DNA of 64,000 nt, taken from contig CAWBMP010000004.1 in assembly GCA_963790025.1 (NCBI GenBank), positions 992,001 through 1,056,000 on the forward strand. The letters are read 5' to 3'. Under the pieces are notes generated by a model. The model was not told the origin of the DNA and did no database searches. It was given only the letters and a program-made list of their open reading frames with translations. Positions 13,593-59,740 of this stretch are shown in pieces (the first letter of the stretch is position 1; each line of letters opens with the position of its first letter). This stretch comes from Nitrospirota bacterium. Lineage in GTDB: Bacteria; Nitrospirota; Thermodesulfovibrionia; Thermodesulfovibrionales; Dissulfurispiraceae. The position numbers were made by a program, and so were the translations under genes.

Positions 13593-13602
13593 AAAGTAAT
13601 AT
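13593..13602 (+). promoter_or_regulatory. Shared island motif AAAGTAATAT upstream of parM
   Basis: Exact match; an 8/10 inverted copy at 13581-13590 makes an imperfect palindrome. Confidence 0.55.
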
Positions 13603-13630
13603 CTATTTACGTACAGCATACAGCGTTCAG

Positions 13631-13726
13631 TGTTCAGCGTACTCCGTTGCAAACAAGACAGTTAATTATTGCAGTTTCAGTCGGTTAGAGCTTTTTAACT
13701 GTACGCCGAACACAGTACGGTGAACA
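13631..13726. repeat. Candidate parC/ParR operator repeats
   Basis: TGTTCAGCGTAC (13631-13642) and inverted variants GTACGCCGAACA (13701-13712) and GTACGGTGAACA (13715-13726) upstream of parM. Confidence 0.55.
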
Positions 13727-13753
13727 TGTTACGCAAAAGGGGGGTAGAGTATT

Positions 13754-14737
13754 ATGAAGATAGGAATTGATGTAGGATACGGGTATACCAAGGTCGTCAC
13801 AACGCATTCCTCAATTATCTTTCCATCCCGTGTGGGTCCTGCCAGGGAGTTGTCGTACTCGCTCAAAGAAGGCACTGACGTTATGGGAGAAACTGTCGAA
13901 TATGAGGGCGAACGATATTTTGTAGGGGAGAAGGCAAGACATAGCGATGTTACCTACACCCTCATGACAAGAGGCTGGATCGAGAGCAAGATGTATGGGG
14001 CATTGCTTACTTCGGCCCTTACCAGGGCAATGAACGGCAGATATGCTTTAGCTGACCCTGAAGAAATAATTATTGTCACCGGCCTTCCCGTAGATTATAT
14101 GAGAGATAAAACCAAAGCCGAAGAGAGCCTCGGAAAGGCGTGCGATGGGATTGGCCTCCGTATCACAGGCATCAATATAATACCGCAGCCTTTCGGCTCT
14201 TTTTTTGACATGTTTTACGATAATAACGGTGATATTGCCGGCAGCGCACCTTTCTTAAAAAGGATTGGGATAGTCGATATCGGTTATCACACCACGGATT
14301 ATATTCTTATCGAGGAGGCTCAACGCAATATCGAGAAGGCCTCTGGCAGCGTTCCTACTGGGGCCCATGAGATATACGATATTGTAGCCAGAGAATTAAA
14401 GAACATGTTCGACAGAGATACAGTTACTGCGGAAGAGGCCGAGCACTGCGTTAAAACCAAACATTATAAAGTCTCGGGTCAAAACAAAGATATGGGTACC
14501 CTGGTTGGCCGAGTGCTGTCACAAGTGGGGCAAAAGATAACTGGTATTGTTAAATCTAAATGGAACCTTGAAGGAGAAATTGACATTGTCCTGCTAACCG
14601 GAGGCGGAGCTGCGCTTATTCAGCCGCACATCTCATCTATAGCGCATACTCACTTCCTGATAAATGAACCCCAGATGGCCAATGCGCGAGGATATTATAA
14701 GAGGAGCGTCATCCTGGAACGAAAAATTAAAGGTTAG
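13754..14737 (+). CDS. ParM/StbA-family actin-like segregation ATPase
   Basis: IGIDVGYGYTK, VTGLPV, IPQPFG, IVDIGYHTTD, LLTGGGA. Confidence 0.9.
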   Translation: MKIGIDVGYGYTKVVTTHSSIIFPSRVGPARELSYSLKEGTDVMGETVEYEGERYFVGEKARHSDVTYTLMTRGWIESKMYGALLTSALTRAMNGRYALADPEEIIIVTGLPVDYMRDKTKAEESLGKACDGIGLRITGINIIPQPFGSFFDMFYDNNGDIAGSAPFLKRIGIVDIGYHTTDYILIEEAQRNIEKASGSVPTGAHEIYDIVARELKNMFDRDTVTAEEAEHCVKTKHYKVSGQNKDMGTLVGRVLSQVGQKITGIVKSKWNLEGEIDIVLLTGGGAALIQPHISSIAHTHFLINEPQMANARGYYKRSVILERKIKG

Positions 14738-14752
14738 CGGAGACATGGGCGG

Positions 14753-15049
14753 ATGGAAAAAACAGCAATATGCTTCATACGATTGTACCCTGATAATCCG
14801 GAGGATGCCCTTATTATTGCCGGCCTCGGCACAAGAAAAAGAAAAGGGGAGAAATCCAGGGTCATAAAAGACATACTTTATGCTCATTTCAGAAATAAGA
14901 AGAGCAGTCTCCCGGAACCGCCAACCGAATCACGCAAGGGGATTAAAGGACCATCGTCTCAGCTCCATCCGAAAAGCACTGCGCTGTCGGATGATGAAAA
15001 AGTGACATTAAAAAAGAACCTCGACGAACTTTCAGATATGCTTATGTAG
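14753..15049 (+). CDS. Putative ParR-like DNA-binding adaptor
   Basis: Small basic protein directly after parM; RHH-like N-terminus and C-terminal helix. Confidence 0.6.
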   Translation: MEKTAICFIRLYPDNPEDALIIAGLGTRKRKGEKSRVIKDILYAHFRNKKSSLPEPPTESRKGIKGPSSQLHPKSTALSDDEKVTLKKNLDELSDMLM

Positions 15050-19359: not shown

Positions 19360-22300
19360 TCATTTATCATGAAACTGACCTGATGTCAAACACCCTGTTC
19401 CTGCACGCACCCGTTTGCCGGTGATTATCCTTGACGCATTGCTTTCAAGTGTATCTATCCTACCCTCAAATGCTGCATTAGCCAAAATCGTGGTTGTCCT
19501 CTGAAATGCTGCCGACGCAAGAAAACTTTTTGAGTACAGCGGTATCTGACTGATGCCGAGGAGCACGGGAGTCGCTGTCGGAGGCTTCAAGCCTCTTCGC
19601 CGGGTCCTGTCACACTCATCTTCAAATTCGCTCTTATGAATAATATCACCTGTCAGAAACCTTGCCCCCCGGCTGTCTGTAACTTTCACAAATCCGGTCA
19701 TCTGGCTAAGTATTATTTCAAAATGCTTGTCATGTATTACCACTCCCTGTTTGCGGTATATCTTCTGGGCTTCATCGAGTAAATATTTCCACACTGCTCC
19801 GCCACCTGCAGCATGCAACAGATCATGGGGGTTGACTGCACCGTCAATGTTACTGAGCTCCGCCGCTCTGCGCGGCCTTCTTGCTTCAAGAAGGTCAATA
19901 ACCTCCGGAAGCCCGCCGGTTATGTCCATGGGAGTGACAACTGCTCCACCGGTATGAAATGTTCGCAGGGTAAGCTGGGTCCCGGGCTCACCTATGGACT
20001 GAGCTGCGATAATACCCACCGCGTCCCCTGTCTCTGCGGGCCTGCGGCTGCCGACATTGAATCCGTAGCAGCGCGCACAAACGCCGCGTTGCGCCTTGCA
20101 GGTAAGCACAGACCGCACTTTGACCTTTTCTATTTTTGCCTTGCTGATTTTTGCCGCTGTCGCTTTATCCAAAACGGTGCCATACGATACGAGCACAGTG
20201 CAGGAGTCTATGTCCAGAACGTTATCTGCCAATGCCCTGCCGGTTATTCTCTCCTCCAGAGAAATTTCTACTGTACCGCCGTTCTTCAGCGGTCCAAGGT
20301 AAATGCCTTCGAGCGTCCCGCAATCATCCGTAGTTACGATGAGGTCACGCGCAGCACTCACCAGCCTTCTCGTAAAATAGCCCGCCGCCGGCGTCTTCAT
20401 GGGGCCATCCACCCTGCCCTTTCGCGCCCCGTGCGTGGAAAGAAAAAACTGGAATGCACTTAACCCTTCTCTGAAATTCGATGTAATCGGCATTTCTACA
20501 ATTTCACCCGTGGGCTTGGCCATCAAACCCCTCATGCCGTTTATTTGGCGTATCTGGTTGAAGTCGCCTCTCGCGCCAGAATCACACATCATAAAAAGGG
20601 CATTGGATTCTACATGCCGGTCTTCTTTTAATACGCGCATCGCTTCAGATGTTATCCTGTCGGTTGCTCTCGTCCATACGTCGATTTCCTTATTATGCCT
20701 TTCGTTGTCAGACATCAAACCGGTTTCATAATGGCTCCTCACCTCCGCTGCTTCCTCCTCTGCCTCAGCAACAATGGCCGCCTTTTCGGAAGGGACGAGC
20801 ATGTCATCAAGACAAAGCGATATGCCCGACAACGTCGCATATTTAAACCCAATGCCTTTTATCTCATCCAGAAACCTGATCGTCTCCCTGACGCCGCACT
20901 TTTCATAGCACAACTCGATTAAGCCGGCAAGTTCCTTTTTATTTAAGACTTTATTTATTACCGCGAAGGGTATACCTGCTGGAGTTATGGCATAGAACAG
21001 CACCCTTCCAGCCGTTGTTCTTACCAAGGCGCCATCTATTCTGACCTGAATGCTGGAATGTTCTTCTACAATATTGTTTGCATATGCAATACACACCTCG
21101 TCCACATCCGAGAAAAGCATTCCTTCCCCTTTTCCCCTTTTTCCCGATTTCCCATCGCTGGTCAAATAATAAATACCCAGGACAATGTCCTGAGACGGCA
21201 ATAAAGCAGGCCTGCCGTTGGCCGGATGGAATAAATTGTTAGTGGACATCATGAGGACCCTCGCCTCTATCTGTGCTTCAAGTGAGAGAGGCACATGCAC
21301 TGCAATGGTATCTCCGTCAAAATCGGCATTGAAGCCCGAACACACAAGAGGATGGAGCCTTATTGCAGCGCCTTCAACAAGGACAGGATCAAAGGCTTGC
21401 ATGCTTAATTTATGCAAAGTCGGCGCCCGGTTTATTATGACTGGATGCTCGGCAATTATATCATCGAGGGCGTCCCAGACTTCTGGTTTCTCTTTTTCAA
21501 AAAGCCGCTTTGCCTGTTTCAGCCTTGGGGCAAACCCATTTTTAATAAGCCACCGGTATATAAATGGCCTGAAAAGCTCAAGTGCCATTGCCTTCGGAAT
21601 GCCGACCTGATGGATTTTCAATTCCGGCCCTATAGTAATATGTGCCCTTCCGGAATAGTCGACCCTTTTGGCAAGAAGATTATGTCTGAATATTCCACTC
21701 TTAGAGCTTATCATCTCTGAGAGCGATTTAAGCGGCCTTTTTTGAGACCGGTTTTTGACGGCAACATTCCTGCCATTGTCGAGCAGGCTGTCAACTGCGG
21801 CCTGAAGAAGCCTTTTTGCATTCTGAAGTATTATTTCTGGAGCGCCGAGGTGAATAAGTCTTCGCAAGCTTTGATTTTTGTAAATGACCTTGCTATAAAG
21901 CAGATTAAGATCGGAGGCAACAGTAGTCCCGGCGTCAGGAAAAATTATGGGGCGCAGGTCAGGGGGCAATACAGGCAGCATGTCTAAAATCATCCACTCC
22001 GGTTTGTTTCCGGACTTCAGGAGTTTCTCGATCAAAGAGAGTCTGCTTCTTTTTCTCAGGGATAACGTGCCATTCTCTTTAAGTCCCTTCGGAATGGCAT
22101 CCAGGTCAAGGCCTGTAAGTAGTTTCCTGATCGCTTCCGCACCGGTTTCAACATGGAAATGATCGCATGAAGTCCGGTATTTTCTGTACTCTTCATGTGT
22201 AATTGTCTGGTTCTGTTTGAGACCGCTGTCGCCCGGATCAATTACAACATAAAATTCGTATTGCACGATTTTTTGGACCTGCCGGGGAGGCAGTCCCAGT

Positions 22301-22671
22301 ATCCTTGCAAGAACGCTTTTAGGCCCTTTGTAATACCAGATGTGCGCAACAGGCGCAGCGAGAGTTATGTGGCCGAGTCTTTTTCTTCTCTCTTCCGGTT
22401 CCAGCAGCCCCGTACCGCAAGTCTTACATGAGGCTGCTCCACCGTTATCTGTGCCACAAGAACATTTACCCTTTCTTACCGGGCCGAATATTCCTTCGCA
22501 GAATAACCCATTTTTTACCGGGCCGCCATTTTTTAAACTGAATGTTTCCGGCGAAGACACCTCGCCATAAGATAATAAACTCTTCCCGAGGGGACTTAAA
22601 AGACCGATTCTAAGAGAATCAAATGCCTGATTATCGATCATAGGTTGTTGGCTGCAGGGACATGCCTCCAT
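19360..22671 (-). CDS. rpoC: Orphan, shortened DNA-directed RNA polymerase beta' subunit paralogue (1103 aa)
   Basis: [70 protein letters not shown], RAGTG; no rpoB or ribosomal protein genes nearby. Confidence 0.95.
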   Translation of the reverse strand: [1103 protein letters not shown]

Positions 22672-22700: not shown

Positions 22701-22710
22701 ATATTACTTT
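22701..22710 (-). promoter_or_regulatory. Shared island motif AAAGTAATAT upstream of the rpoC paralogue
   Basis: Exact match 29 nt before ATG 22671. Confidence 0.7.
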
Positions 22711-24188: not shown

Positions 24189-24536
24189 CTTTCCCGGTAA
24201 CTGCGAGTGTGGATGTCTAACGGTATAGTCCTGACCCCCAGTTTGCAGTTTGCAGTTTTCGGTATTCATAGCAACAATGTTTAAATGTTTACAGAGAGTG
24301 CGTGTTCCTGTCAACATCAAACGACACCCTAAGCTACTTCTTTGATAAGTAAATAATGATTAAATGTACTGGATTAGGTAATATAACGATGAAAGTATTA
24401 TGTATACTATGCCGGAAGATGTGCGGGCGGAATAAAAGGATAGGAGTAGTGTTCGAGACGTGACATGAATAGTGTGTTGAAGGTTTTGGTTTCGATGTTC
24501 CTGATGACAGGGTTGTGTGGGTGCGGTTGAGGTAAG

Positions 24537-25184: not shown

Positions 25185-26825
25185 TTACTCTGTATATGGA
25201 TAATTATACTGTTGCAAATCCCTCGTGGGTTGATGAAACATTTCATTGTAAACCTGTTTAAACCTCGGATCATCTGACCCTATCTGTGTAACCACCGTAG
25301 CTCCGCAGCCTTTCGTGTGCGAAGCCCCGCCGCATGCCAGAGCCTGCCGGAGGTCAATTTTGCCGATGAACGTCCCATATTTGCAAGGAGTCGCGTCGAA
25401 CGCTGCATTCAACCATTGCGCATCAGTACGGCTGGCCACTATTGCGCCATCGCCGGTAGTGCTCGGCGTTGTGAGGTCATAAGACGAATCGAAAAATGGC
25501 GTTATATCTGCAGTAGTTTGGGTTGTTGGTGAAAACCCGGATGCTACGAGCCCGCCGACAGCACCGGCACTGCCTCCAATAAGCGCTCCCGTCCATACTG
25601 CATTAAGCCCAGCGGAAGAAGCTGCGCCAGCAGTGGCACCGGCCCCGCCCCCAGCGCCGGCACCCCCAGGTATAAGAGCACCAATTGCTGCACCACCAAC
25701 CGCCATAATAACAATACACGCAATAAACACAAACAGGCCCGTAAATCCCGACTGAGACTTCGACCACTGATACAACAATATCTCCGAATTATCAAAGTTC
25801 GCGCCCTGTCCAGTAACCTGAGTAAATCCAACCTGGTTCCCATCAACCCACGTCGGGTTATAAACAAAATCGGCATACGAACCACTATGTGCTTTCATTG
25901 CAACTGTCCAGTCCTGGCTAAGCCAGTACGACACAGTCACTTTCACTGTTTTCGTAAAAAAACCACCGTGTGATTCTTTTTTTATGTCCTGCCGTATCTT
26001 CGAATTAGCCACAAACGCCACAGCCGCCTTATGTGTCATCAATGCAAGCGCCACCAGATTGTACAGTCCTGCCTGCGTGATGTTATGGAAATCACCGTCT
26101 CCGTTGTCGAAATCCCTGAGCCCCCGGTGTGTGTAACACGGGTCGCTGTTGAACCGCTGGTGAAAGTAATAGTTGCTGTGATTGATCTTGTCCTGATCAG
26201 CGCCGAAGATAAAGTAAGGCTGCAACATCGTTCTGCCGAAGTCATACTCGGCAACATCGTGCATGATCCGGGTATTATCGACATTCGGCGGGTCGGATGT
26301 GGACAACTGGTGCTCCGTCGGATCGCACCCTGGTCCGGAATTATAATCCAGCCAAGCGAAATTATAATAATGCTTCCCCATGAAATGATGAAAATTGCCG
26401 GGTGTGATCTGCAGAAGATCCGCCCTGATGTTGGGACCTACCTGCGCCATACGCATCAGCGCGAGAGTCGCGGTATTTGTGGCTGGGTCATATTTAGCGA
26501 GGACCATAGGCGGCGGTGCGCTCGGCAGGACAATTGTATTTGATAGCTGATTGCTGGGAATATTGAGGTATACAGCGTCTTCCCTGCCTGCCATTCGGGC
26601 CCACGCATACTTCAACATCCCATGGGGCGCCGACGTGTCCGTAGGAAGCGGCGGCACTGGCCCCGGAGTGCCTTGATATATGCCGCCGGCATATGCGCTT
26701 GCTATTCCCACTTGCAGGCCCAGTTCTTTAGTCTCCTCATGCGGCATGAAGATCAGAAATGTCCACGTGAATAGTGTCACAAGGAATGCGCTGATTGTCT
26801 TATGAACCCATGTCTTTTGTGCCAT
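25185..26825 (-). CDS. Hypothetical exported/membrane protein with Gly/Ala-rich hydrophobic C-terminal region
   Basis: 546-aa ORF, N-terminal TM, C-terminal hydrophobic hairpin; preceded by the island motif. Confidence 0.75.
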   Translation of the reverse strand: MAQKTWVHKTISAFLVTLFTWTFLIFMPHEETKELGLQVGIASAYAGGIYQGTPGPVPPLPTDTSAPHGMLKYAWARMAGREDAVYLNIPSNQLSNTIVLPSAPPPMVLAKYDPATNTATLALMRMAQVGPNIRADLLQITPGNFHHFMGKHYYNFAWLDYNSGPGCDPTEHQLSTSDPPNVDNTRIMHDVAEYDFGRTMLQPYFIFGADQDKINHSNYYFHQRFNSDPCYTHRGLRDFDNGDGDFHNITQAGLYNLVALALMTHKAAVAFVANSKIRQDIKKESHGGFFTKTVKVTVSYWLSQDWTVAMKAHSGSYADFVYNPTWVDGNQVGFTQVTGQGANFDNSEILLYQWSKSQSGFTGLFVFIACIVIMAVGGAAIGALIPGGAGAGGGAGATAGAASSAGLNAVWTGALIGGSAGAVGGLVASGFSPTTQTTADITPFFDSSYDLTTPSTTGDGAIVASRTDAQWLNAAFDATPCKYGTFIGKIDLRQALACGGASHTKGCGATVVTQIGSDDPRFKQVYNEMFHQPTRDLQQYNYPYTE

Positions 26826-30254: not shown

Positions 30255-30262
30255 GAGGAGAT

Positions 30263-46542: not shown

Positions 46543-46552
46543 ATATTACTTT
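46543..46552 (-). promoter_or_regulatory. Shared island motif AAAGTAATAT
   Basis: Exact match 73 nt before ATG 46469. Confidence 0.7.
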
Positions 46553-48407: not shown

Positions 48408-49583
48408 CTAATTACAGTTCACACCAGCGCCAACCGGTGCCTGTACGCATTGCGATCCCGCATATGTATAATGGTCACACGACAGGGTATTGACCGTGTC
48501 ATTCGTGTAATCGTAAAGTGCATTTGTCCCGAACGGATCTATAATGATCTGCGCCAGAAGCCTCGGGTCCGGAAAATTGCCGGGAATGACCTGTCGAAAG
48601 GGATAAGATTTGGCGTCATATCCATTCGAAGTGGCTGTGTAACTGAAGCTGCCATTTGGCTGTACAAGGTAACGGTCCGTCGTATATTGGAGAGTGTAAA
48701 TAATAGTCCCGACATTCTGATATGAATACATAAGAGGGAACTGCTGGTTGCAAGTGTTTACGGTCCTGCTGCTGGAATCAATAGTTATCCTTGCGATACA
48801 GTTGCCGCTGGTATCGCAGTCTTCCGCTATTTGAACATTCCGTGCGTAATCGACGATTGCATATGAAGCAGTATAATTGGTAAATTCGGGGACTACGACT
48901 TCGCTGATCAACGACTGAAGCCCCTGGTCTGGATTTACGACGGGCTGATTACTGGTAGACTGCGGAGGATCGTACCTCCCATGCGTTTCAACAGTAGTGC
49001 TGCTTATAAGATTCAGGCTCTGGTCGAGGATGTTCTTGTAAAGTATTCCTCCGTCGGGATATTCCGATGCTAACCCGGGGGGAAGATCCGGTGCAGCAAG
49101 TGGATGATAAACATAGTATAGGATTCGAGGGTTCACTGATATGACCCTCATTCCCATGTTCCGGACCCGCCCATCCGGATAAATAAGAAGTGGCAGGTAA
49201 ACAGCCTTCGGTGTGCCCTTATCAGCATCATCAATGAAATTATAGTACCAATCCAGCCGACAGTAATCATATCCGCTGCCGGCAAGATACGATACGACGC
49301 TTGCCACGTATCCATCAGGCACCAGCCCGGCAAAGGCACTAAGCGCATCAGAAGCCGACGCGAAATCGCCTTGCGAAATGCCTCCGTTACCCAGTGCATA
49401 GGCAGGCTCTACTTTCGCGTCGAATGCATCTGAGCGCTTCCATGTAACATTATTTTCTCCGGCACCGTGCCCTTCGGTAATAAACAGTATATTTTGTACT
49501 GGCACAGAGGTTATCCCGCAAAATGCCGGGGTGCCGGCAAACGTTGTGATCACCCAAAAAAACGTTATTAGCCAAAGTTTCAT
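48408..49583 (-). CDS. Secreted hypothetical protein (possible pilus-associated adhesin)
   Basis: Signal peptide; Tyr/Cys-rich; last gene of the pilin block. Confidence 0.6.
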   Translation of the reverse strand: MKLWLITFFWVITTFAGTPAFCGITSVPVQNILFITEGHGAGENNVTWKRSDAFDAKVEPAYALGNGGISQGDFASASDALSAFAGLVPDGYVASVVSYLAGSGYDYCRLDWYYNFIDDADKGTPKAVYLPLLIYPDGRVRNMGMRVISVNPRILYYVYHPLAAPDLPPGLASEYPDGGILYKNILDQSLNLISSTTVETHGRYDPPQSTSNQPVVNPDQGLQSLISEVVVPEFTNYTASYAIVDYARNVQIAEDCDTSGNCIARITIDSSSRTVNTCNQQFPLMYSYQNVGTIIYTLQYTTDRYLVQPNGSFSYTATSNGYDAKSYPFRQVIPGNFPDPRLLAQIIIDPFGTNALYDYTNDTVNTLSCDHYTYAGSQCVQAPVGAGVNCN

Positions 49584-49584
49584 C

Positions 49585-50544
49585 TCAGTATAACCCTGTA
49601 GCTGTTACCGTCAGGAATACGCCTGGGGACCATGGCAATTCCGCGTTTAGGACCGCCGTATACGGAATTGTCATCCCGGTAGTATCCGGGTTTCTTGAAG
49701 CAGCAGAGGAGTTGTCAAGCAACATCTCCCTACCCCACGCAGTAGTCACGGCATCGGTGTTCAACCCGAGCGCGGACTTGAGTCCCGTAGCTGTCACAGT
49801 TTGAGCTCCTGTACAAGTAGAATTGGAAACCCCCGATGCGCCGTCCCATGCCTGGTCCTGAGCGCATGAACTGCTCTGGTTTGCAAACCGGTCTATATAG
49901 ATGTTTTTCTGAACGTCGTTAAGGTAAAGCTGCGTAAAATAGTTTTGATAAGAATCGCGGACAATATACATCTTTTGGAGTGTGTTTTGAACATTGCTTA
50001 CCTCATACTGCCAGCCGTTTACAATGACGCCAATATCATCACCGAGCAAATTCAGCGTCCCTGTAGTTTGATCGGACGTACTTTCCATAGTGCCGTTCCA
50101 GCCGGAAGACACCAGAGCAATTACATGATAACTCACCCCCGAAGTGCTGTCCTGCAGAAGATTCGATACAAACACCATCAGGGGATTATGCATCGAATCG
50201 GTGGCAATAGCTGAGGATGCAAGGCTCGAATTTGACGCTATGGCCCGCAGCGCTGAAAGATTGCCGGCATCAGTCGCAAGCCCATTACTGAGCGCGTATG
50301 GAGTGCCATTAATCGCGAATACGAACGTATTGGAGTTCTGCGAATCCACAGACCACGCATTGGACTGGTATGCAGTCTGCAACGCTGCCCGGAGATCGGC
50401 AAGGTTTTTCTTGACCTCGGTTTCCCTTTGCCACCGCACCAAATATATCCAACCGCCCATGGACATCACGGTTATAGTCATTATGATGCCAAGCACGATT
50501 GCAAGTTCAGCTAGAGTAAAACCACTATTATTAAAGCTCTTCAA
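49585..50544 (-). CDS. Prepilin-type N-terminal methylation domain protein (large minor pilin)
   Basis: G|FTLAELAIVLGII. Confidence 0.85.
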   Translation of the reverse strand: MKSFNNSGFTLAELAIVLGIIMTITVMSMGGWIYLVRWQRETEVKKNLADLRAALQTAYQSNAWSVDSQNSNTFVFAINGTPYALSNGLATDAGNLSALRAIASNSSLASSAIATDSMHNPLMVFVSNLLQDSTSGVSYHVIALVSSGWNGTMESTSDQTTGTLNLLGDDIGVIVNGWQYEVSNVQNTLQKMYIVRDSYQNYFTQLYLNDVQKNIYIDRFANQSSSCAQDQAWDGASGVSNSTCTGAQTVTATGLKSALGLNTDAVTTAWGREMLLDNSSAASRNPDTTGMTIPYTAVLNAELPWSPGVFLTVTATGLY

Positions 50545-50554
50545 GTGGACGTTC

Positions 50555-51301
50555 CTAATTATTTGTTGTTGCCGTCATCCAAATCGTCGCACCCCAGGGA
50601 GTATTAAATCCGATCCGGGACGTATAAGGCGGCGCCAATGAATTCACAGTTGGGGAGGAATTATCGAATATCATATTATTTCCATACGCGTCCTGGCAGT
50701 CCGCAACTCCCACGCCGAGCACCGGCTGCAGTATCTGAGCAGTGGCATTCGTCACGCACTGAATCTCGCCCATCCCTCCGCACGATGTGCCTGTAAAAAA
50801 GTTTGCCCCCACCCCACCGCTTTGCAGCTTCTCCGCCTTGAAATAATTCTCAAGCGCGGAAGTCAAAGTCGCAGCTTTATTCTGTGAGGCCCGCACCAGG
50901 GACATGCCGATTCTACAGCCATCCACAATCTGTACCTGGTCATTGCTGCCGGACGTCACATTCCCTGTTATCATGTCCATTGTTGTCGCGGTCCCTGATA
51001 GTCCCGGGAGGACAAGCGCATACCTGTGAGCATATGTCTGCCCGTTGCAATTCACTCGGTTTGAAGCAAGCAACGTCAACCCCCACCGAGCGCTGACGCC
51101 AGGCGGCACAACTTGCCCTGCATTTCCGTCGATCATAAAAATGTTGGACTGATACCAGGCCGTAATATTTTGTGACTGTTCCGCAAGTAACACCGTTTTT
51201 TCCGCTGCGGTAACACTGTTGGCGTCATAAACGGTGCCTGCCGTCATAAGTGAAAAAAAAGCGGCTATGAAAAAAAATACTGCTATAACTATTGCCGCCA
51301 T
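50555..51301 (-). CDS. Pilin-like protein (paralogous to 49585..50544)
   Basis: Hydrophobic N-terminus; C-terminal DAYGNNMIFDNSS...PYT resembles TAWGREMLLDNSS...PYT of the neighbour. Confidence 0.65.
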   Translation of the reverse strand: MAAIVIAVFFFIAAFFSLMTAGTVYDANSVTAAEKTVLLAEQSQNITAWYQSNIFMIDGNAGQVVPPGVSARWGLTLLASNRVNCNGQTYAHRYALVLPGLSGTATTMDMITGNVTSGSNDQVQIVDGCRIGMSLVRASQNKAATLTSALENYFKAEKLQSGGVGANFFTGTSCGGMGEIQCVTNATAQILQPVLGVGVADCQDAYGNNMIFDNSSPTVNSLAPPYTSRIGFNTPWGATIWMTATTNN

Positions 51302-51307
51302 TATTGA

Positions 51308-52342
51308 TTATCGAAACGCTTCCTGGTCATACGAATAACGTTTTGCCTCCTCCACAGTTATATGCCCGTGGCTTACCAGCATATCGAGCGATTTGTTCAA
51401 TTGGATACACCCATTGGAAGACATCAACTGATTAGGAAGCTGCTGCAGCTTGTCGCTTCTTATAATATTGGATATCGCCCTGTTAGTTATGCATATCTCG
51501 TACGCTACGCGCACCAGTCCATTTCTGCCCCTGATAAGCTTTTGGACAAGCACAGTCCTGAGTACTGATGATAGAGACGACCTCACATTCCCTTTCATGT
51601 CTTCCGGCTGCATATCGATAAACCGGGCAACGGTTTGATGCACCGAATCCGTGTGCATTGTCGAAAGCACCAGATGCCCGGTTTCAGCGGCCTGCAGTGC
51701 TACCAGTGCAGTCTCCCTGTCTCTTATTTCTCCAACCACAATGATATCAGGATGCTGGCGCATAGCTGACCGGAGATGAGGAAGAAAGCTTTCGCCAGTC
51801 CCGGTTTCCCTTTGGCTTACTAGGGACTTTCGCTCTTTTATGATGTATTCAATCGGGTCTTCTATCAATATGATCTTTTTCCTGTAACGGTCATTTATGT
51901 ATTCGATTAACGAGGCCATTGTTGTAGACTTGCCCGATCCTGTCGGACCGCATATCAGGATGAGTCCCTGTTTTAATTCCATCGATTGATAAAGATGTTC
52001 CGGGAACCCAAGTTCTTTTAATGTCTTGATACGCGATGGTAAAAGCCTTATTGTTAGGTCCAGTCCCTGCCAGCGCTTGTCAAGATTGCACCGGAGTCTC
52101 CGTCCGTTAAAGGTGACACCGAAATCCAGAGGCAAGCTTTCAATATTGCCCTTAAAAAGAAGATCATTCAGGAGTGTTTTTATTTCATTATCATTAGTCC
52201 TGGAATCACAAATTGGTTTCATTTCGTTGTTTGTTCTGATAGAAGGATGTGAGTCCGCAGCAAAGTAGAAGTCACTTAAACCGTCCGTATCGAGGTGCCC
52301 CCGGACTATATCTATCAATTGGTTACAGTTGCCAGTGTCCAT
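51308..52342 (-). CDS. PilT/PilU-family ATPase (copy 2)
   Basis: GPTGSGKSTT, IEDPIEY, AMRQHPDIIVVGEIRD, AISNIIRS. Confidence 0.9.
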   Translation of the reverse strand: MDTGNCNQLIDIVRGHLDTDGLSDFYFAADSHPSIRTNNEMKPICDSRTNDNEIKTLLNDLLFKGNIESLPLDFGVTFNGRRLRCNLDKRWQGLDLTIRLLPSRIKTLKELGFPEHLYQSMELKQGLILICGPTGSGKSTTMASLIEYINDRYRKKIILIEDPIEYIIKERKSLVSQRETGTGESFLPHLRSAMRQHPDIIVVGEIRDRETALVALQAAETGHLVLSTMHTDSVHQTVARFIDMQPEDMKGNVRSSLSSVLRTVLVQKLIRGRNGLVRVAYEICITNRAISNIIRSDKLQQLPNQLMSSNGCIQLNKSLDMLVSHGHITVEEAKRYSYDQEAFR

Positions 52343-52446
52343 ATGATCGTCCCCAAAATAGCTTGCAATGTGCTACGTTCAGCGCACTGTAAAAAAAAGT
52401 TTTTTTATTAACGCAAAACCCTGTTCACAAAACGTAGTGCTCTGTA

Positions 52447-53040
52447 TTACCAGGTTTCTTCAACTATAAAATATATGTCCGTTGTATCCGCATTACCATC
52501 GGAAAGGCAAACTCTGTTTCCCATTTGGTCTTTTATGGCTTTTGCAGTATCGTGGGGGACCGACAGTACTTGCACGGTGTGGTCTGCCCCCGTTGGATTA
52601 TTGGCCCCAACCTGTGTACAGTTCGCACAGTTGCCAGTCCCGCCGCCGCTGCCCGTAAGTTTGACATAGTGATACGTCACCCCTGCAACAAACTGGTCAG
52701 CAACATCAATGGCCGGAGCTGTCCCGGTCGTCTTTGACGGCGTGTCCATATATGGACCTTTCCAGTAGTCCGTTACAGTTGAAGGCATAACACTTTTGTC
52801 CCATAAAAGCTGCAGCGCTGCAGGATACGAGCCGAGATCGGCCTTGTAACGTATCAACCCGGATGATATGTTTTCAACGGTTTTCATGATCGCAGCCGCA
52901 TTCCTTTTGTCAGAACTGCCCTGGAGCGTCGGCAAAATAAGTGCCAGCAAAACAATTATTATCGATATAACCATCAGGAGTTCTACAAGCGTAAAGCCTG
53001 ACTCACAAGACGCACCAAGAATTCGCTTTTTTATTCTCAT
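52447..53040 (-). CDS. Type IV pilin / GspG-like major (pseudo)pilin
   Basis: G|FTLVELLMVISII; YKADLGSYP...L..L...WKGPY; strong RBS. Confidence 0.88.
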   Translation of the reverse strand: MRIKKRILGASCESGFTLVELLMVISIIIVLLALILPTLQGSSDKRNAAAIMKTVENISSGLIRYKADLGSYPAALQLLWDKSVMPSTVTDYWKGPYMDTPSKTTGTAPAIDVADQFVAGVTYHYVKLTGSGGGTGNCANCTQVGANNPTGADHTVQVLSVPHDTAKAIKDQMGNRVCLSDGNADTTDIYFIVEETW

Positions 53041-53084: not shown

Positions 53085-53104
53085 ACTTACTTGAATATTA
53101 CTTT
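53085..53104 (-). promoter_or_regulatory. Island motif, extended form (AAAGTAATATTCAAGTAAGT)
   Basis: Exact 10-mer 54 nt before ATG 53040; 19 bp identical to 40047-40065. Confidence 0.75.
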
Positions 53105-54151: not shown

Positions 54152-55162
54152 TTAAAGTCCGCCGAGCATACTGTATATCGGATATACCGTTATCCCGAAC
54201 AACCCTACTATTGAGAGTCCTGCAACGAGCAAAAGCGCAATGTTCAGTGTCGCGACCATTCTGCCCATCATCTTATCAAGACTCTTTATCTCGATCTCGG
54301 AAAGTTTTTTAAAGGACTTGCCTATTTTGCCGGTCGCATCTCCAACTTCCAAATAAATGACAACGTCATCGCTTGCACCGCCTCTTTCAAATGATTTAGG
54401 TACGGAGTTGCCTTCCTCCATGGCCTTGCCGGCTTCGGATAATACTTTCTTAAGAGGACCTGCAAGTGATTGTCCTACGGCATTCAATGACCTTGTCGTA
54501 TTTATGCCCGACTCATGAAAAACGGCGAGAAGCAAATAGGCTGTGGCATTTTCCTGCAAGGTCAAGACACTACTGACAACCGGTATTTTGTACAGGAAAT
54601 AATAATACCTTTTGACAAGAAAAAAAATGAGCGCTCCGGCGCCTATAATTAGCACTAAAGACAATGAAAGATTGCCTCTCAAGAATACCGACAGTGTGAA
54701 TAATGCCTTTGTGGCTGCTGGTATTTTCTTTGGATCTACGCTTTTAAAAACAGCGGCAAACCTCGGTATAAGAAATATGACCACGCCGCCGAATGTACCC
54801 GCAAGTGCCGTGATAATGCCGATCGGGTAGGAAATGGCTTTTTTGGTTCTTTCATATACCGTCTGTTTCAATTGATATACCCGACCGATCTCGGCGAATA
54901 TTACATCCAGATGGCCGGATTTTTCTCCGGCAGTTATGGCTTCTATAAGGTTATCCGGCAGTATGCCGTGAAATCCGGCGGCAATCGTCCCTTCTTCAAT
55001 GAAAATTCTTCGCCTCATGTCCTCAATTACCTGTGCCTTTCTTTTTTTTGCGAAGATGCTCTCGAGTCTCCGCAAAGTGTATCTGATATCAAGGCCATCT
55101 GCTATTGATTCTTCAAACACTTCGAGAATTATTGATATCTCTTCTATTTTTAAATCAATCAT
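54152..55162 (-). CDS. PilC/GspF inner-membrane platform protein
   Basis: AGEKSGHLD, KAISYP, IPRFAAVF, VGDATG, YPIY. Confidence 0.88.
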   Translation of the reverse strand: MIDLKIEEISIILEVFEESIADGLDIRYTLRRLESIFAKKRKAQVIEDMRRRIFIEEGTIAAGFHGILPDNLIEAITAGEKSGHLDVIFAEIGRVYQLKQTVYERTKKAISYPIGIITALAGTFGGVVIFLIPRFAAVFKSVDPKKIPAATKALFTLSVFLRGNLSLSLVLIIGAGALIFFLVKRYYYFLYKIPVVSSVLTLQENATAYLLLAVFHESGINTTRSLNAVGQSLAGPLKKVLSEAGKAMEEGNSVPKSFERGGASDDVVIYLEVGDATGKIGKSFKKLSEIEIKSLDKMMGRMVATLNIALLLVAGLSIVGLFGITVYPIYSMLGGL

Positions 55163-56769
55163 ATTACCCTCTCAATCTCCTCGTAAGAGGATATCCCGCT
55201 CAGTACCTTATATTCGGCATCCTGCCTTATATTCGGGACGATTGCGGAAGCCTGTTCCCTTGCATCTATAATATTTCCGTCGAGGGCCAGGTCAAGTGCT
55301 TCCCGTGTTGCGCTCTGAAACGGAAAGTGTTCTGAAAGCATGGTCCTGCCTTTATAGCCCGTGTTATTGCATTTGGAGCAGCCGGCTGCCTCATATACTT
55401 CCCCCTTTGGAGAAGCAGACCGGTCGGACTTTTTTTTGCATGAACAAAGAACTCTCGCCAGCCGTTGAGAAATTATGCCGAGAACAGCAGCCTCTATCAT
55501 TGAGTTCGGAATGCCTAGCCCCTGAAGCCGGGGGATAGCTTTGATTGCATCATTGGCGTGAAGTGTTGTAAAGACAAGATGCCCCGTGTTTGCCATGTCA
55601 AAAGCAATTTTAGCGCTTTCTTCATCTCTGATTTCACCGCAAAAAATGATATCGGGATCGTGCCGCAGGATGCTCCTGAGCGCGTCTGCCATAGTGAGTT
55701 TGTCGTTGACCTGTATTTGCTTCCATAAATAGTTGCGGTATTCAACAGGGTCCTCCACTGTTACAACCGAACGCGAGATAGTATTAATGGTGGCCATAGT
55801 TGAGTATATGCTCGTGCTTTTGCCTGAACCCGTAGGTCCGGTAAAAATTATCAGCCCGTGAGACTTGAGCTTTGACACATTAAGAAATTCCATGACAAAC
55901 CTGCTTACGCCGAGGTCTTCAAGCGGTAAAATACTTGTCCTTCTGTCAAGAATCCTGATGACTACGGACTCTGCGTACCCTTTTCTGCTCCAGTTGGGTA
56001 TCGTCGATACCCTGAAATCTACCGGAGCATACCTATCTTCTCCCATGAACTTCCCGTCGATCCTTCCGTCCTGCGGCTGTTGTTTTTCAACCTGATTCAT
56101 GCCGCTCTGCAATTTAATCAGGTTGGTTAGTCGGGTAAATTGGTCATCATCGAGAGCAACGAGCATTTCAAGCAGACCGTTGCGCCTCAATTTTATTCTT
56201 CCGCCCTCGACAGTAGGTTCAATGTGTATATCGGAGCATCGCTCGATGATCCCCTTTTTCAGGAGCAGGCGTAGGCCTTTTCCTGCCTGTTCTTCATGGG
56301 CAGAGCCTTTCGAGAGAGCTTTTACTATTTCATCGTCCGCTATGTGAATCAGGGATTCAAGATATCTCTGATAGGTATCACTCGAAACCACTACGAATTG
56401 CGCCTGCTTCCCCAATCGCTGTTTAACATGCCGCGCTACGGCATCTCTTTTATTTATACTCATTGGATCAACCATCCCGATCTTAACAAAAGTTCCGTTC
56501 TGCTCTATCGGAACGATCTCGTTCTCTTCTATGAATGAAAATTCAACCGGTATGTCCCGCTGTACATCATGGGTAAAGATCGAAAAATGCTCCAGTCGCC
56601 ATTGCTCCGCCAAACACAACGATAGCGTCTCCGGGTTCACCAGCGACATTTCCAGAAGTATTTCTCCTAGCGGCTTTTTTCTTATCTTTTGCTCTTTTAA
56701 AGCAAGTTCTATATATACGGCCGGGACATTATGGTCGATCAATACTTTTCCTATTTTTCTTTCAAACAC
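55159..56769 (-). CDS. PilB/GspE assembly ATPase
   Basis: SDIHIEP, PQDGRI, TGPTGSGKSTS, LRHDPDII, tetracysteine motif, GYKGR. Confidence 0.93.
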   Translation of the reverse strand: MFERKIGKVLIDHNVPAVYIELALKEQKIRKKPLGEILLEMSLVNPETLSLCLAEQWRLEHFSIFTHDVQRDIPVEFSFIEENEIVPIEQNGTFVKIGMVDPMSINKRDAVARHVKQRLGKQAQFVVVSSDTYQRYLESLIHIADDEIVKALSKGSAHEEQAGKGLRLLLKKGIIERCSDIHIEPTVEGGRIKLRRNGLLEMLVALDDDQFTRLTNLIKLQSGMNQVEKQQPQDGRIDGKFMGEDRYAPVDFRVSTIPNWSRKGYAESVVIRILDRRTSILPLEDLGVSRFVMEFLNVSKLKSHGLIIFTGPTGSGKSTSIYSTMATINTISRSVVTVEDPVEYRNYLWKQIQVNDKLTMADALRSILRHDPDIIFCGEIRDEESAKIAFDMANTGHLVFTTLHANDAIKAIPRLQGLGIPNSMIEAAVLGIISQRLARVLCSCKKKSDRSASPKGEVYEAAGCSKCNNTGYKGRTMLSEHFPFQSATREALDLALDGNIIDAREQASAIVPNIRQDAEYKVLSGISSYEEIERVI

Positions 56770-56809
56770 GCCTTTTGCTCCATACCCTTGTTAAGGTCCT
56801 TCTGCTGCG

Positions 56810-57259
56810 TTACCCTTTGAAATAACATCGCGCATTTATTTTTATTGACCTGCTGGCCAGGACATGTTTTGTATATACAACCGGCATCAACTCCTTAAGT
56901 TTTTCAAGAGAGATAATTATATGAGCAAGAGATTTGTAATTATTTATATCGATCACAAATGAAATATACTTGCCCACATCATCTGAAGACTCGGCCATTT
57001 CACTCATAGGGAAACCTTTCTTATCCGCTATATTTTTAAGGCCCAGCATAGCGTCTTCCTTTGTATCGAGATGCACGTTAAAAGCAGGCAAAGTCTTTAA
57101 ATTACGTATTTTTGCCATTAGTATTGCGGTTTTCTGCTTTTCTGCTTTCAGCCGCATTTCAAGCTCGCTGTTTTTTTTATATTGGGGCAATGTGATACTA
57201 CTGTAAATCAAAAAGGCGGCGATAATTGCCCCGACCGGCAGGACCGGTATCTTCTTCAA
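56810..57259 (-). CDS. PilO-like alignment protein (start uncertain)
   Basis: TM plus coiled coil; position between the pilN-like gene and pilB. Confidence 0.5.
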   Translation of the reverse strand: MKKIPVLPVGAIIAAFLIYSSITLPQYKKNSELEMRLKAEKQKTAILMAKIRNLKTLPAFNVHLDTKEDAMLGLKNIADKKGFPMSEMAESSDDVGKYISFVIDINNYKSLAHIIISLEKLKELMPVVYTKHVLASRSIKINARCYFKG

Positions 57260-58148
57260 CAGCTCTGGTAAAGCTGATTTCAATTGTTCCTCCTCGTATG
57301 CTGACCCTTGCATCCTTTGCCGATTCCTTGATTCTGTATGCCTCTTCGGCATTTTGTAATGTTACTGTCCCCGTTATGTTTCTGCGTTCCGAGGTCGCAT
57401 TGATAGCTGAATATTTCCTCCCCTCGAGAAACGATAATGTCTTAATGACCTCATCGAGAGGGATGTTCACAGCATCAAGGTAAAGAGGTAATCTCGCCAG
57501 ATACTCTGTCTTAAGGTCATCCTTAATCCGCCTGTTTTCAAACTCCACTGATTCAAGGTCATTTTCCATGTTTTTTCCTTTCAGGATCAGAACAGCCCAA
57601 ATTACTATGCTCAGTAGAACGAGCGATGCACTCGCTGTAATTTGTATCAACCTGTTCCTTTTGCTTTCCTTTTCAAGGTCTCTATATGCCGGGGTACTCT
57701 CGACCGCCTCCCAAAGCTTCACAATCGGGATATTGGCGCCGTATATTTCCGTTACATTGCTCTCCGGGAGATCCAACTCATTAATTTTATTTTCTATTTC
57801 ATTTCTGTCCTCAATATCATCACTCGTAAAGCGCCATATCAAGGCACCGTTACGATAAGAAAAAACCAGGAGCCTCTTCGCAAAGTAAATGCCAACAATC
57901 GCATTCTCTCTGACGTTAAGTGTCTGAAATAGACTTTTGGCCTTTTTTATTTTCTCATTGGCAATGCTTTTCTCCAGGAAAAAATAATTGCCATGTTTGC
58001 TGTAATATTTATAGTTCCGGTCTTTCCGATCTCCAACTGTTGAATGGTCTGTTAATACTGCCAACCCTTCGGTCGACGGTAACGTGCCGCCTACATTACC
58101 GCTTCGGTCTATGTAAAATTTCTCTTTCTGAAAATCGATATAAATCAT
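57198..58148 (-). CDS. PilM/PilN (GspL)-like bitopic protein
   Basis: Cytoplasmic domain, TM, coiled coil; follows the secretin. Confidence 0.5.
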   Translation of the reverse strand: MIYIDFQKEKFYIDRSGNVGGTLPSTEGLAVLTDHSTVGDRKDRNYKYYSKHGNYFFLEKSIANEKIKKAKSLFQTLNVRENAIVGIYFAKRLLVFSYRNGALIWRFTSDDIEDRNEIENKINELDLPESNVTEIYGANIPIVKLWEAVESTPAYRDLEKESKRNRLIQITASASLVLLSIVIWAVLILKGKNMENDLESVEFENRRIKDDLKTEYLARLPLYLDAVNIPLDEVIKTLSFLEGRKYSAINATSERRNITGTVTLQNAEEAYRIKESAKDARVSIRGGTIEISFTRAVEEDTGPAGRGNYRRLFDLQ

Positions 58149-59695
58149 TTTGCCCTCTCCACCCTCAAGGAAATCACAATTTCTGACTTGCCGCCGGTAT
58201 CATTTTGCGATTTAAACAGGGCCCCCAAAATAGGCGCCTTTGAGATAAGCGGAACTGACTTTGAGCTTATGTTCTTTTGCTCTTTCTTAATGCCTCCAAT
58301 AACGATTGTTTCGCCGTCCTTCAGAGTTACTGACTGCAAGGTCTGCTGCACCGAGGACACAGGGTTAGCAAAGGTGTTGCCGCCGATGTTGAACGTAACA
58401 TAATCATCAACACTCGCAAGAATTGGCGCTATCTGCACATCAATTCTGCCGTCATCCCTTATGTGACACCGTACTGCAAGCATAATACCGTCCTGTGCAC
58501 GTGAAATGGTATAGCTTGTCTGAGCTGTTCCAACGGTGCCGCTTATTGTCGTCTGGATGCTGCCGATATACGGAACGCTTTTGCCTGAGAAAATGGCGAC
58601 GGGCTGCAGATTCCGGGCATAGATATGGGGCTTTGAAAGCACCTGCACACTGCCTTGGTCCTCAAGGGCCTTGAGAACACCCGAGACATCTGATGCGGTC
58701 CTGGCAATAGTGAGTGTTGGGGATGTCACATCGGTCACAGTGGACACAGCCTTCAACGAAGTCCCTCCCTTAGTAAGCTGGATGCCCCCTATTTTGTTTG
58801 CCAAAATATTCCAGTCAATGCCGTATGTAAAATCTGAACTCGTCGACACCTCGTTAATTGTTGCCTCTACAAGGATAAGACGATCTGATGATTCTTTAAG
58901 TCCGTTGATGTACTGAGCAATAAGCACTATGTTCCTTGGCGAGTCCACTACCATCAGGCTCGCTGCCAGCCAGTCAACTACATAGTGGCCATCCGTGGAA
59001 AGCAGCTTCTTTATGTTTTCCTCAAACATCTTCCTGCCGTCTACCGTATCTCCCGCTTTCTTTAGTGTTACATTTGCCTTGAGGTTCTGCGAGCCTGTAT
59101 CTGCACCGCTGCTGCCATACCCTGTTCCTCCTCCTGTGCTGCTGCCGCTGTTGCTGCCGCCTACCATGTCCCCGCCCATCTCTGCCGTCATGTTCGGAGA
59201 CGTTATACTTACATCAGGAATCGAAAAGTTCCTCACTATGAGCTTCTGTACGGTTATCGTCTTGTCCTTTATCTCATATCCATAGTTCACATAACCCGTT
59301 ATAGCATCAAGTGCCTGTGATAAAGGGATGCCTCTGACATCCACTACCACCGGCAGATTGGGGTCCACCTGTGCCCCAAAGATTACCGTATATCCTGTCC
59401 CACTTCCCATTTCCAGCAAAATGTCCCCTAACCTCCGCCCATAGGAGGTCAGCGAGACAAGTGGTCCAGAGGATACCACCTGAACCCCCTTTTCTGAAGG
59501 ATGCGCAGGAGGGAGTTGAGAGGTCAGGGATGAGTCCCTGGTTAAAGAAATAATGATTTTCTTCTTTTGCTCTATTTCCTTTGTCTTATTATCTTGTGCT
59601 TCATGCCTCGCTTCTCCGGGTTCCTGAGCAAACAAGGGAGTCTGCATTTGCAGTAAAGCGAGCACAACGGCCATATAAGATATTATTTTTATCAC
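58145..59695 (-). CDS. Secretin (MshL/PilN/PilQ-like)
   Basis: ILVEATINEV, YGIDW, VLSKPHI, LKDGETIVIGG, VPLISKAPILGALFK. Confidence 0.92.
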   Translation of the reverse strand: MIKIISYMAVVLALLQMQTPLFAQEPGEARHEAQDNKTKEIEQKKKIIISLTRDSSLTSQLPPAHPSEKGVQVVSSGPLVSLTSYGRRLGDILLEMGSGTGYTVIFGAQVDPNLPVVVDVRGIPLSQALDAITGYVNYGYEIKDKTITVQKLIVRNFSIPDVSITSPNMTAEMGGDMVGGSNSGSSTGGGTGYGSSGADTGSQNLKANVTLKKAGDTVDGRKMFEENIKKLLSTDGHYVVDWLAASLMVVDSPRNIVLIAQYINGLKESSDRLILVEATINEVSTSSDFTYGIDWNILANKIGGIQLTKGGTSLKAVSTVTDVTSPTLTIARTASDVSGVLKALEDQGSVQVLSKPHIYARNLQPVAIFSGKSVPYIGSIQTTISGTVGTAQTSYTISRAQDGIMLAVRCHIRDDGRIDVQIAPILASVDDYVTFNIGGNTFANPVSSVQQTLQSVTLKDGETIVIGGIKKEQKNISSKSVPLISKAPILGALFKSQNDTGGKSEIVISLRVERAK

Positions 59696-59730
59696 TGTAG
59701 TAAAGTTTTTCGAGAAATGCCTTCAGTAAG

Positions 59731-59740
59731 ATATTACTTT
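59731..59740 (-). promoter_or_regulatory. Shared island motif AAAGTAATAT
   Basis: Exact match 35 nt before GTG 59695. Confidence 0.7.

Follow-up and report, generated by a model that had tools for sequence, protein, structure and literature searches.

A single motif heading all the transfer operons of a conjugative element is an arrangement that is already known. The global operators of the IncP and IncW plasmids (KorA, KorB, and TrbA; ArdK and StbA) are repeated short sites at many backbone promoters, some of them overlapping the -10 region, and SXT/R391 reportedly uses a transfer-regulon box of the same kind as the AcaCD box, bound by SetCD. The late promoters of phage T4, TATAAATA, are read by gp55. 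The AcaCD box, as described in PMC4207636, is a short motif that lies in the sense orientation before most transfer operons and unites them into one regulon, and data mining with the motif finds further members. Here we report on a 64,000-nucleotide (nt) stretch of DNA from a Nitrospirota bacterium (the window; G000:C4:992001-1056000), in which a 10-bp motif heads the transfer, pilus, and partition operons of an integrated conjugative element, together with a second gene for the RNA polymerase beta' subunit (the beta' paralogue). The work is based on the DNA of metagenome-assembled genomes (MAGs), the one that holds the window having 3.45 Mb and 47% GC. What we observed is the motif itself, together with its enrichment, orientation, position, and conservation, and the genes that carry it; with modest confidence, we lean to a reading in which it would be the -10-region core of a dedicated set of promoters, poor in -35 elements, that unite the transfer genes and the beta' paralogue in one regulon and are read by a dedicated factor.

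Results

Motif copies at the heads of transfer operons

The core word is (A)AAGTAATAT, and its 10-mer form is AAAGTAATAT. The exact 10-mer was found six times in the window against 0.19 expected, and none of 100 dinucleotide-preserving shuffles reached six; with up to one mismatch allowed, the count rose to 20 (5.49 expected) and included CAAGTAATAT at 40057 on the minus strand. An earlier sequence-only reading of the window had placed these six copies and the 9/10 match at 40057 before the beta' paralogue, parM, and five transfer or pilus gene starts, and had put the chance expectation below one per window; its seven positions and seven distances to gene starts proved correct. All seven copies are intergenic and sense to the next gene, gene starts being taken from a longest-open-reading-frame (ORF) caller with a check for ribosome-binding sites. 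The copies, with the distance to the next start on the same strand, are as follows.

13593 to 13602, plus strand: exact copy of AAAGTAATAT, 151 nt before parM
22701 to 22710, minus strand: exact copy, 29 nt before the beta' paralogue
26903 to 26912, minus strand: exact copy, 77 nt before a gene for a 546-amino-acid protein
40057 to 40066, minus strand: copy CAAGTAATAT, 9/10 match, between the SLT and PilT-like genes, 52 nt before an ATG with a ribosome-binding site (the longest ORF begins upstream of the motif); heads the PilT-like, TraC, TraD/VirD4, and 262-amino-acid genes
46543 to 46552, minus strand: exact copy, 73 nt before the PilP-like gene; heads the PilP-like, TraU, TraF-like, 424-amino-acid, TraG_N, and SLT genes
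53095 to 53104, minus strand: exact copy, 54 nt before the pilin gene
59731 to 59740, minus strand: exact copy, 35 nt before the secretin gene
59680 to 59689, minus strand: further copy, degenerate (AAAATAATAT), 51 nt downstream of that at 59731

The TT or TTT that the sequence-only reading had noticed 1 to 3 nt upstream of most copies is present at six of the seven, the exception being the parM copy. Some copies share more than the core: AAGTAATATtcaagtaagt is common to the 40057 and 53095 copies, with a shared stretch of 19 nt, and a two-copy leader like that at 59731/59680 also precedes TraU in the related genomes G027 and G309. A partial inverted half, AGTAATATTTACT, follows the 22701 copy, and a direct repeat, AAGTAA-N5-AAGTAA, is found at 40057 and 53095. 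A Fur/Zur-like 7-1-7 palindrome fitted the 22701 copy only and was dropped.

Genome-wide distribution and target genes

The exact 10-mer has only 19 copies in the 3.45-Mb genome, 7 of them within 65 kb, so the motif is not a word that is frequent throughout the genome without bias in orientation or position, which the sequence-only reading had named as the outcome that would tell against it. On the same low number, the idea of a DNA-uptake sequence was rejected. The 9-mer AAGTAATAT has 47 copies genome-wide; the 9 that belong to the element all lie in sense between genes (one of them, 32 nt within a longest ORF, is treated as intergenic), and 31 of the 38 outside copies lie inside ORFs. Counting 8-mers with no motif as input, in 41 intergenic segments of the element (10.4 kb) against 1656 others (333 kb), returned AAGTAATA (10 copies vs 0.77 expected) and AGTAATAT (8 vs 0.80) as the two most enriched words. 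A second enriched word, CTTCCTTA, was set aside; its copies are on both strands, scattered, and patternless.

Among genes preceded by a gap of 40 nt or more (gapped genes), a sense copy of AGTAATAT is found in the 200 nt upstream of 8 of the 43 in C4:1004000-1094000 and of 15 of the 1743 elsewhere (odds ratio 26, Fisher p=2e-8), the limits of the element having been taken from gene content, from parM to an XRE-type gene, when the motif positions were already known. The eight carriers are parM, the beta' paralogue, the 546-amino-acid gene, the PilP-like gene, the pilin gene, two secretin genes, and TraV. Beyond them are the PilT site, which is absent from the gapped-gene count because the longest ORF there swallows the gap, and a 9/10 site before the TraL operon. 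Among the gapped genes of the element, no cargo, toxin-antitoxin, sensory, regulator, or housekeeping gene has AGTAATAT upstream, which bears out what the sequence-only reading had seen by eye for cargo, toxin-antitoxin, and housekeeping genes. Its central claim, a single regulon uniting scattered transfer modules and the extra beta' subunit, is supported by the enrichment, the confinement to operon heads, the sense orientation, and the conservation in relatives described below, and the regulon is bigger than it saw, with at least 10 operon heads over ~85 kb. Positive autoregulation through the extra beta' subunit, which it had also suggested, would be a possible further feature.

The element extends ~38 kb past the window, with a second secretin-led pilus operon, TraV, sensory cargo, and a TraL-E-K-B operon, after which come a pair of genes for 250- and 499-amino-acid proteins, the latter with a helix-turn-helix (HTH), and then the XRE-type gene. 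The sites in this extension were scored with a weight matrix built from 15 sites; those at 1075261 and 1090748 were outside the training set, and that at 1070867 was in it.

C4:1070867, minus strand: exact motif copy, 53 nt before the second secretin gene
C4:1075261, minus strand: motif copy GAAGTAATAT, 16 nt before TraV
C4:1090748, minus strand: motif copy AAAGTAGTAT, 73 nt ahead of the gene that opens the TraL operon

Relaxed copies were also seen among the cargo, at 24350-24536 on the plus strand, where TAGGTAATAT and AAAGTATTAT lie upstream of a 196-amino-acid gene (24537) with a weak BamE-like match; this gene is a possible weak extra member of the regulon.

Geometry of the sites

In all, 34 sites were curated by at most one mismatch to the 10-mer, and 26 of them have differing flanks. 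The last six bases of the motif, TAATAT, are present in 25 of these 26, the one variant being TAGTAT, and positions 1, 2, and 6 of the hexamer always match a TATAAT-type -10 element (T-12, A-11, and T-7). Natural variants alter its third base (TAGTAT, TATTAT), the base at which a -10 hexamer tolerates change best. The motif is followed by Y (24/26), T (20/26), and A (16/26); purines prevail 7 to 11 nt after TAATAT, reaching 23/26 at the ninth nucleotide. Upstream there is a weak preference for T 4 to 6 nt before the motif and no conserved column further out.

The sequence-only reading had seen no conserved -35 box, and this stands: at 16 to 18 nt upstream of TAATAT none of the 26 sites reaches 5/6 to TTGACA, and no column is conserved. 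Nor does any of the 26 have the TG of an extended -10 element at -15/-14, the bases before TAATAT being (A/C/G)AAG, with G at -13. The host tRNA genes have canonical TTGACA-N17-TATAAT promoters; in a looser test, which took the best of many pairings, 17 of the 49 regions upstream of tRNA genes combined a -35 match of 5/6 or better with a -10-like hexamer. A scan with a sigma-70-like consensus gave 74 calls, none of which overlaps a motif copy, and within 100 nt upstream of the seven window copies it gave one weak call (9/12; 22783-22754), the scan being a simple one that may miss atypical promoters.

At three sites the spacing to the gene is tight: the ribosome-binding sites start 6, 9, and 11 nt past the motif, and the start codons follow at 16, 19, and 26 nt, leaving no room for a -10 element and start site downstream of the motif. 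The motif at these sites is therefore no -35 box or upstream activator site but sits at the -10 position. To judge from sequence, the geometry favors a -10 region over an operator.

Conservation in related elements

Related contigs come from other MAGs of the Nitrospirota, family Dissulfurispiraceae; these genomes are kin, and counts across them are not independent. In G027 a compact version of the element, syntenic with that of G000, adjoins the same groEL locus; it has exact or 9/10 motif copies, all sense, before the TraL operon, the second secretin gene, a pilus ATPase operon, TraU, SLT, a ~320-amino-acid gene that leads to beta', and parM. In five related loci found via TraC, all 11 exact 9-mers lie between genes on the strand of the type IV secretion system genes, and there are two further 9-mers in G046 and four in three short metagenome contigs. 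G046 has a TraC only 60% identical, and there the motif precedes the pilin gene, the PilP-like gene, and another operon, the copy orthologous to the 53095 pilin copy reading AAAGTAATATtcaggtaagt. The parM copies of G027, G057, G006, and G030 keep AGTAATAT.

The SLT gene illustrates how the core is kept while its surroundings change. The motif lies upstream of it in G027, G308, G309, and G057, between SLT and PilT in G000, and at both places in locus L043; all three metagenome contigs have it before SLT, and one has it also between SLT and PilT. The SLT-upstream flanks diverge around the core (...gacccGAAGTAATATtaag..., ...ggtcaCAAGTAATATctca..., and ...ctccAGGTAATATttag...). By sequence comparison, a core kept with changed flanks and changed place is what a selected cis-element would show, not inherited sequence similarity.

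In G010 and G030, which belong to a second genus (GC 55-58%), synteny of the element is kept, the regulator genes are the same, and of the motif only a degenerate GTAnTAT remains (AAGTATTAT before SLT and CAAGTAATAT before a parM-like gene). G010:C18 and G030:C18 (L028-L031) also hold several copies of a canonical promoter whose spacer is conserved (TTGACwTTCTCTCTTTTTCCGTATAwA), most of them between divergent genes. In G006, parM is kept with an exact copy, with no TraC, no 499-amino-acid gene, and only a remnant of beta'; the host could be able to read the motif, or the locus could merely be decaying.

The element adjoins the same HD-domain/groEL neighborhood in G000 and G027 and is decayed in G057 and G006. 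Between G000 and G027, TraC is 85% and ParM 82% identical, against 94% for GroEL and 76% for YceG. As the element proteins differ about as much as those of the flanking housekeeping genes, the comparison suggests that the element has long been vertically resident in the genus.

The beta' paralogue

With the chromosomal RpoC the beta' paralogue shares 49% identity, and the catalytic NADFDGD is retained. Compared with the chromosomal subunit, ~190 amino acids of the trigger-loop insertion are missing, the zinc-finger loop is shortened, the clamp helices carry substitutions, and the zipper reads S-PET-FSLKNG instead of K-PET-INYRTF. According to PMC3950348, it is with the zipper and the zinc finger that beta' comes near the spacer when the promoter is of the extended -10 type, and in PMC3173786, Y47 and R48 of the zipper determine the use of -35-less promoters. 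The paralogue is altered at all five zipper positions probed in the latter study (the equivalents of K41, Y47, R48, T49, and F50). Every paralogue has the altered zipper (YRTF to LKNG-like), the motif-poor g10 elements being no exception, so the zipper change does not track the motif lineage, and a correlation between paralogue zipper and motif type was ruled out.

Within the same genus, paralogues were found in G027 (78% identity) and G037 (77%); they were also found in G308 and G309, while the gene is broken in G057 and reduced to a 68-amino-acid remnant in G006. An intact paralogue travels with the element in two genera (G027:C12:318866-322132 and G010:C18:58306-62376). Two length classes occur, a short form of 1092-1130 amino acids, in which the trigger-loop insertion is missing, and a long form of 1325-1356. 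In all six elements of the G000 type the beta' paralogue lies downstream of a motif copy, directly in G000 and G308 and by way of a coiled-coil gene of ~300 amino acids in G027, G037, G309, and G057.

No second rpoB was found in the genome. In a plasmid collection of 72,556 records, beta'-like genes occur in 69, all below 60% identity, and the matches listed are mostly megabase replicons or ordinary rpoC annotations; none of the 72,556 records holds a close relative of the paralogue. Literature searches on an rpoC paralogue of mobile or conjugative elements, and on the family name, returned nothing relevant.

Search for a reader of the motif

No sigma-70-family gene was found in the element, the matches to PF04542 (region 2 only) being at C4:95481, 1171147, 1265434, and 1573582, all outside it. 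NusG paralogues are likewise absent from the element, with PF02357 matching only C2:455945 and C2:653048. No regulator turned up among the ORFs without a family match when Pfam at a relaxed threshold and NCBIfam were used, and no FlhC or FlhD family among the Pfam-scanned ORFs, a negative that comes from a general scan, not a search by name, in which ORFs below 60-80 amino acids were partly covered.

The 499-amino-acid protein has a Pfam HTH_7 domain and a language-model atlas lead to ParB_N/KorB clusters (0.92), with 168 shared features, below the mark of 170. Its gene and the XRE-type HTH gene adjoin the TraL operon, and both have homologues in G027 and G010. The XRE repressor was rejected as the reader: the divergent region between it and the 499-amino-acid gene has a different palindrome and, in G000, no motif copy. 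That palindrome, AGATAACTAAC.TGTTAG.TATCT, of ~24 bp, is conserved between L020:17894-18155 (G000:C4:1093894-1094155) and L011:5494-5759 (G027), and is likely the element's switch operator, unrelated to the motif. The 262-amino-acid gene beside TraD and beta' was rejected as a partner of beta', as its product resembles Replic_Relax relaxase-type proteins (a language-model atlas lead only).

Gene content of the element

To the left of the element, Pfam and NCBIfam identify housekeeping genes (groES/EL, ispG, and YceG). Then follow parM, the beta' paralogue of 1103 amino acids, an F-type transfer set (TraC, coupling protein, TraU, TraF-like, TraG_N, and SLT), and type IV pilus sets (pilin, PilB/C/T-like, and secretin), interleaved with cargo-like genes (SDR, HtrA, FKBP, a polysulfide-reductase-like operon, DJ-1, and a K+ channel) and toxin-antitoxin pairs. 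The motif-headed units in the window are the following.

13754 to 15049, plus strand: partition module, parM (327 amino acids, actin-like ALP_N/ParM domains, Pfam) and a downstream 98-amino-acid gene
19360 to 22671, minus strand: RNA polymerase beta' paralogue, 1103 amino acids (Pfam)
25185 to 26825, minus strand: 546-amino-acid protein, no Pfam or NCBIfam match
33644 to 40004, minus strand: operon of PilT-like ATPase, TraC (869 amino acids), coupling protein (662 amino acids), and a 262-amino-acid relaxase-like protein (Pfam; the relaxase likeness is an atlas lead only)
40107 to 46469, minus strand: operon from the PilP-like gene to SLT, F-type mating-pair genes (Pfam, NCBIfam)
48408 to 53040, minus strand: pilin operon, with genes for pilin (197 amino acids), T2SSE ATPase, a 248-amino-acid protein, a pilin-like protein (319 amino acids), and a 391-amino-acid protein
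54152 to 59695, minus strand: type IV pilus operon, with genes for secretin, 316- and 180-amino-acid proteins, PilB-like ATPase, and PilC-like platform (Pfam)

Outside the element, at G000:C2:754137 on the minus strand (locus L021, ~9137), ~44 nt are near-identical to the parM promoter region, including ATAGTAATATCTATTTACG, and lie 83 nt before an unrelated 602-amino-acid Big_1-domain gene. Two further genes of the window deserve mention. A molybdopterin oxidoreductase (27060-30254, plus strand) has one in-frame TGA at 27711-27713 (..ARI-TGA-HSATV..), both parts being in the same frame, and the genome has a tRNA-SeC at C2:313123; this is probably a selenocysteine enzyme, not two genes. At 2823-3716 on the plus strand, one ORF encodes a fusion of a protoglobin domain with a membrane domain of the PsiE family.

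Discussion

The mechanism that we propose would work as follows. TAATAT would act as the -10 hexamer, with transcription starting ~7 nt downstream; (A)AAG would lie at about -16 to -13, Y-T-A after the hexamer would belong to the same recognition block, and the weak T-run would fall at about -22 to -20. In this integrated conjugative element, an old one of the Dissulfurispiraceae, one copy heads nearly every transfer, pilus, and partition operon and the operon of the beta' paralogue as well, and modules scattered over ~85 kb by cargo insertions would therefore stay one regulon. The promoters are probably weak or silent for the plain host holoenzyme, since host promoters use TTGACA-N17-TATAAT while here the block is invariant with no -35; a dedicated factor would act at the -10/spacer region. 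That the hexamer has this role, and that such a reader exists, we infer from the geometry and conservation of the sites.

Several observations weigh against this proposal. The invariance of the core is partly a matter of construction, as the 26 sites were selected for at most one mismatch. TAATAT matches TATAAT at only 4/6 positions and has no TG extension. Nine of the 26 sites match TTGACA at 4/6 at 16 to 18 nt, against ~13% of random intergenic positions, and a weak ordinary -35 may thus contribute, the promoters being simply weak host ones overlaid by a regulator's site. G010 and G030 keep only GTAnTAT, and some of their operons use canonical TTGACw-N17-TATAwA promoters. Finally, the searches of the element turned up no sigma-70-family gene, NusG paralogue, or recognizable activator, so that the postulated reader is without an evidenced candidate gene.

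These points lead to the strongest alternative, which we regard as unlikely though deserving serious attention, namely that the motif is the site of a separate regulator encoded by the element, a global repressor or an activator, overlapping the -10 of ordinary weak host promoters, much like the KorA, TrbA, or KorB operators of the IncP plasmids, with the 499-amino-acid HTH protein as a candidate. The weak enrichment of 4/6 matches to the -35 would fit such promoters, and the invariance exceeds a -10 hexamer, taking in AAG before it and Y-T-A after it. Conserved HTH proteins, the 499-amino-acid and XRE-type ones, are indeed encoded next to the TraL operon, and some copies are followed by a partial inverted half (22701) or a direct repeat (40057 and 53095). 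However, these partners are neither conserved nor at fixed spacing, and the site itself is asymmetric and strictly oriented. The region between the two HTH genes has its own palindrome instead of a motif copy in G000, and the ParB/KorB likeness of the candidate is a language-model lead that falls short of the mark. Exact copies persist in the decayed G057 and G006, which have no 499-amino-acid gene, but such decayed loci are uninformative about function.

That the motif is transcribed, and works as an ops-like pause or loading site for an elongation or antitermination factor or as a site in RNA, is a good deal less probable and, in our view, hardly to be expected. It would account for the sense orientation in front of long operons and for the copy that lies within a run of genes, after SLT and before PilT; words that resemble a -10 element can induce sigma-dependent pausing, to which spacer contacts have been linked (PMC3173786), and the genome has a second NusG-family gene, at C2:653048. 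Yet that gene is outside the element, which has no NusG paralogue, and the ribosome-binding sites 6 to 11 nt after the motif at three sites speak against a transcribed motif, as does the lack of any compensatory or structural pattern around it, the flanks being simply unconserved. Six of the seven window copies also have no sigma-70-like call within 100 nt upstream. An absence of any specific function, with the copies as leftovers of duplicated promoter or leader cassettes or as chance words in AT-rich intergenic DNA, can practically be dismissed: some longer leaders are shared (59731 with the TraU sites of G027 and G309; 40057 with 53095 over 19 nt) and the 44-nt parM-promoter-like stretch at C2:754137 precedes an unrelated gene, but the 26 non-redundant sites have the same core in unrelated flanks, enrichment and target specificity are strong, and the core is kept in elements whose TraC is only 60% identical.

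Returning to dedicated -10-type promoters, a sub-case of their reading is that the reader is the beta' paralogue itself: a polymerase carrying it would recognize the -35-less AAG-TAATAT promoters, the host polymerase being reprogrammed by a swap of a core subunit. We consider this doubtful, a good deal more so than the operator just discussed. If it were so, the switch would be self-reinforcing, since the paralogue's own operon carries the motif, and promoter specificity would be switched through the largest core subunit instead of a sigma factor or a small appropriator protein. Whatever the reader, the motif ties an intact and catalytically plausible second beta' gene to the transfer program in 6/6 elements of this type, and this makes a rare kind of hypothesis testable, namely that a core subunit from a mobile element alters promoter choice. 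More broadly, the motif gives a sequence-defined regulon to an uncharacterized, pilus-rich conjugative element of an uncultured and environmentally important phylum, shows co-regulation surviving the cargo insertions that scatter the modules, and can be used to assign genes to the transfer program, such as those for the 546-amino-acid protein and the coiled-coil protein before beta'.

Among known systems, AcaCD of the IncA/C plasmids and SetCD of SXT/R391 resemble this one in having a sense motif before most transfer operons. In the AcaCD system the box is placed ahead of the transcription start, in the position of a class-2 activator near the -35 (PMC4207636), whereas the motif here is at the -10 position; an activator of the FlhDC type acts there, and none is seen here among the Pfam-scanned ORFs; and the host phylum differs. 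The IncP and IncW operators are palindromes or repeat arrays with identified repressors, while the present sites are asymmetric and oriented, with one half conserved and the partner absent or variably spaced, and the ParB-family global regulator of the IncP system has a counterpart here only in the language-model lead for the 499-amino-acid protein. The ops/RfaH system also places a short oriented word before long operons, including conjugation operons, but ops is transcribed and needs a NusG paralogue, for which the element has no gene, and at three sites the geometry is against a long leader.

Phage promoters come closer. The T4 late promoters share the single conserved -10 block without a -35, their dedicated reader being gp55 where ours is postulated, and a search for region 2 found no gp55-like or sigma-70-family gene in the element. 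The middle and late extended -10 promoters of Thermus phage P23-45 (gp39), and the beta'-zipper/Z-element class, are likewise single-block -10-type promoters without a -35. In the P23-45 type, TG stands at -15/-14, whereas here AAG precedes the hexamer; the phage uses a small appropriator, gp39, whereas the element carries a whole beta' paralogue and has no known gp39-like factor; and, as regards the zipper/Z-element class, taking TAATAT as the -10 element would put the weak T-run here at about -22 to -20. By analogy, then, the nearest functional counterpart would be the -35-less middle and late phage promoters together with a polymerase-modifying factor. What sets the present case apart from all of these is the -10 position of the motif, its asymmetry, the absence of a recognizable activator or sigma factor, and the inclusion of a paralogue of the core polymerase in the regulon.

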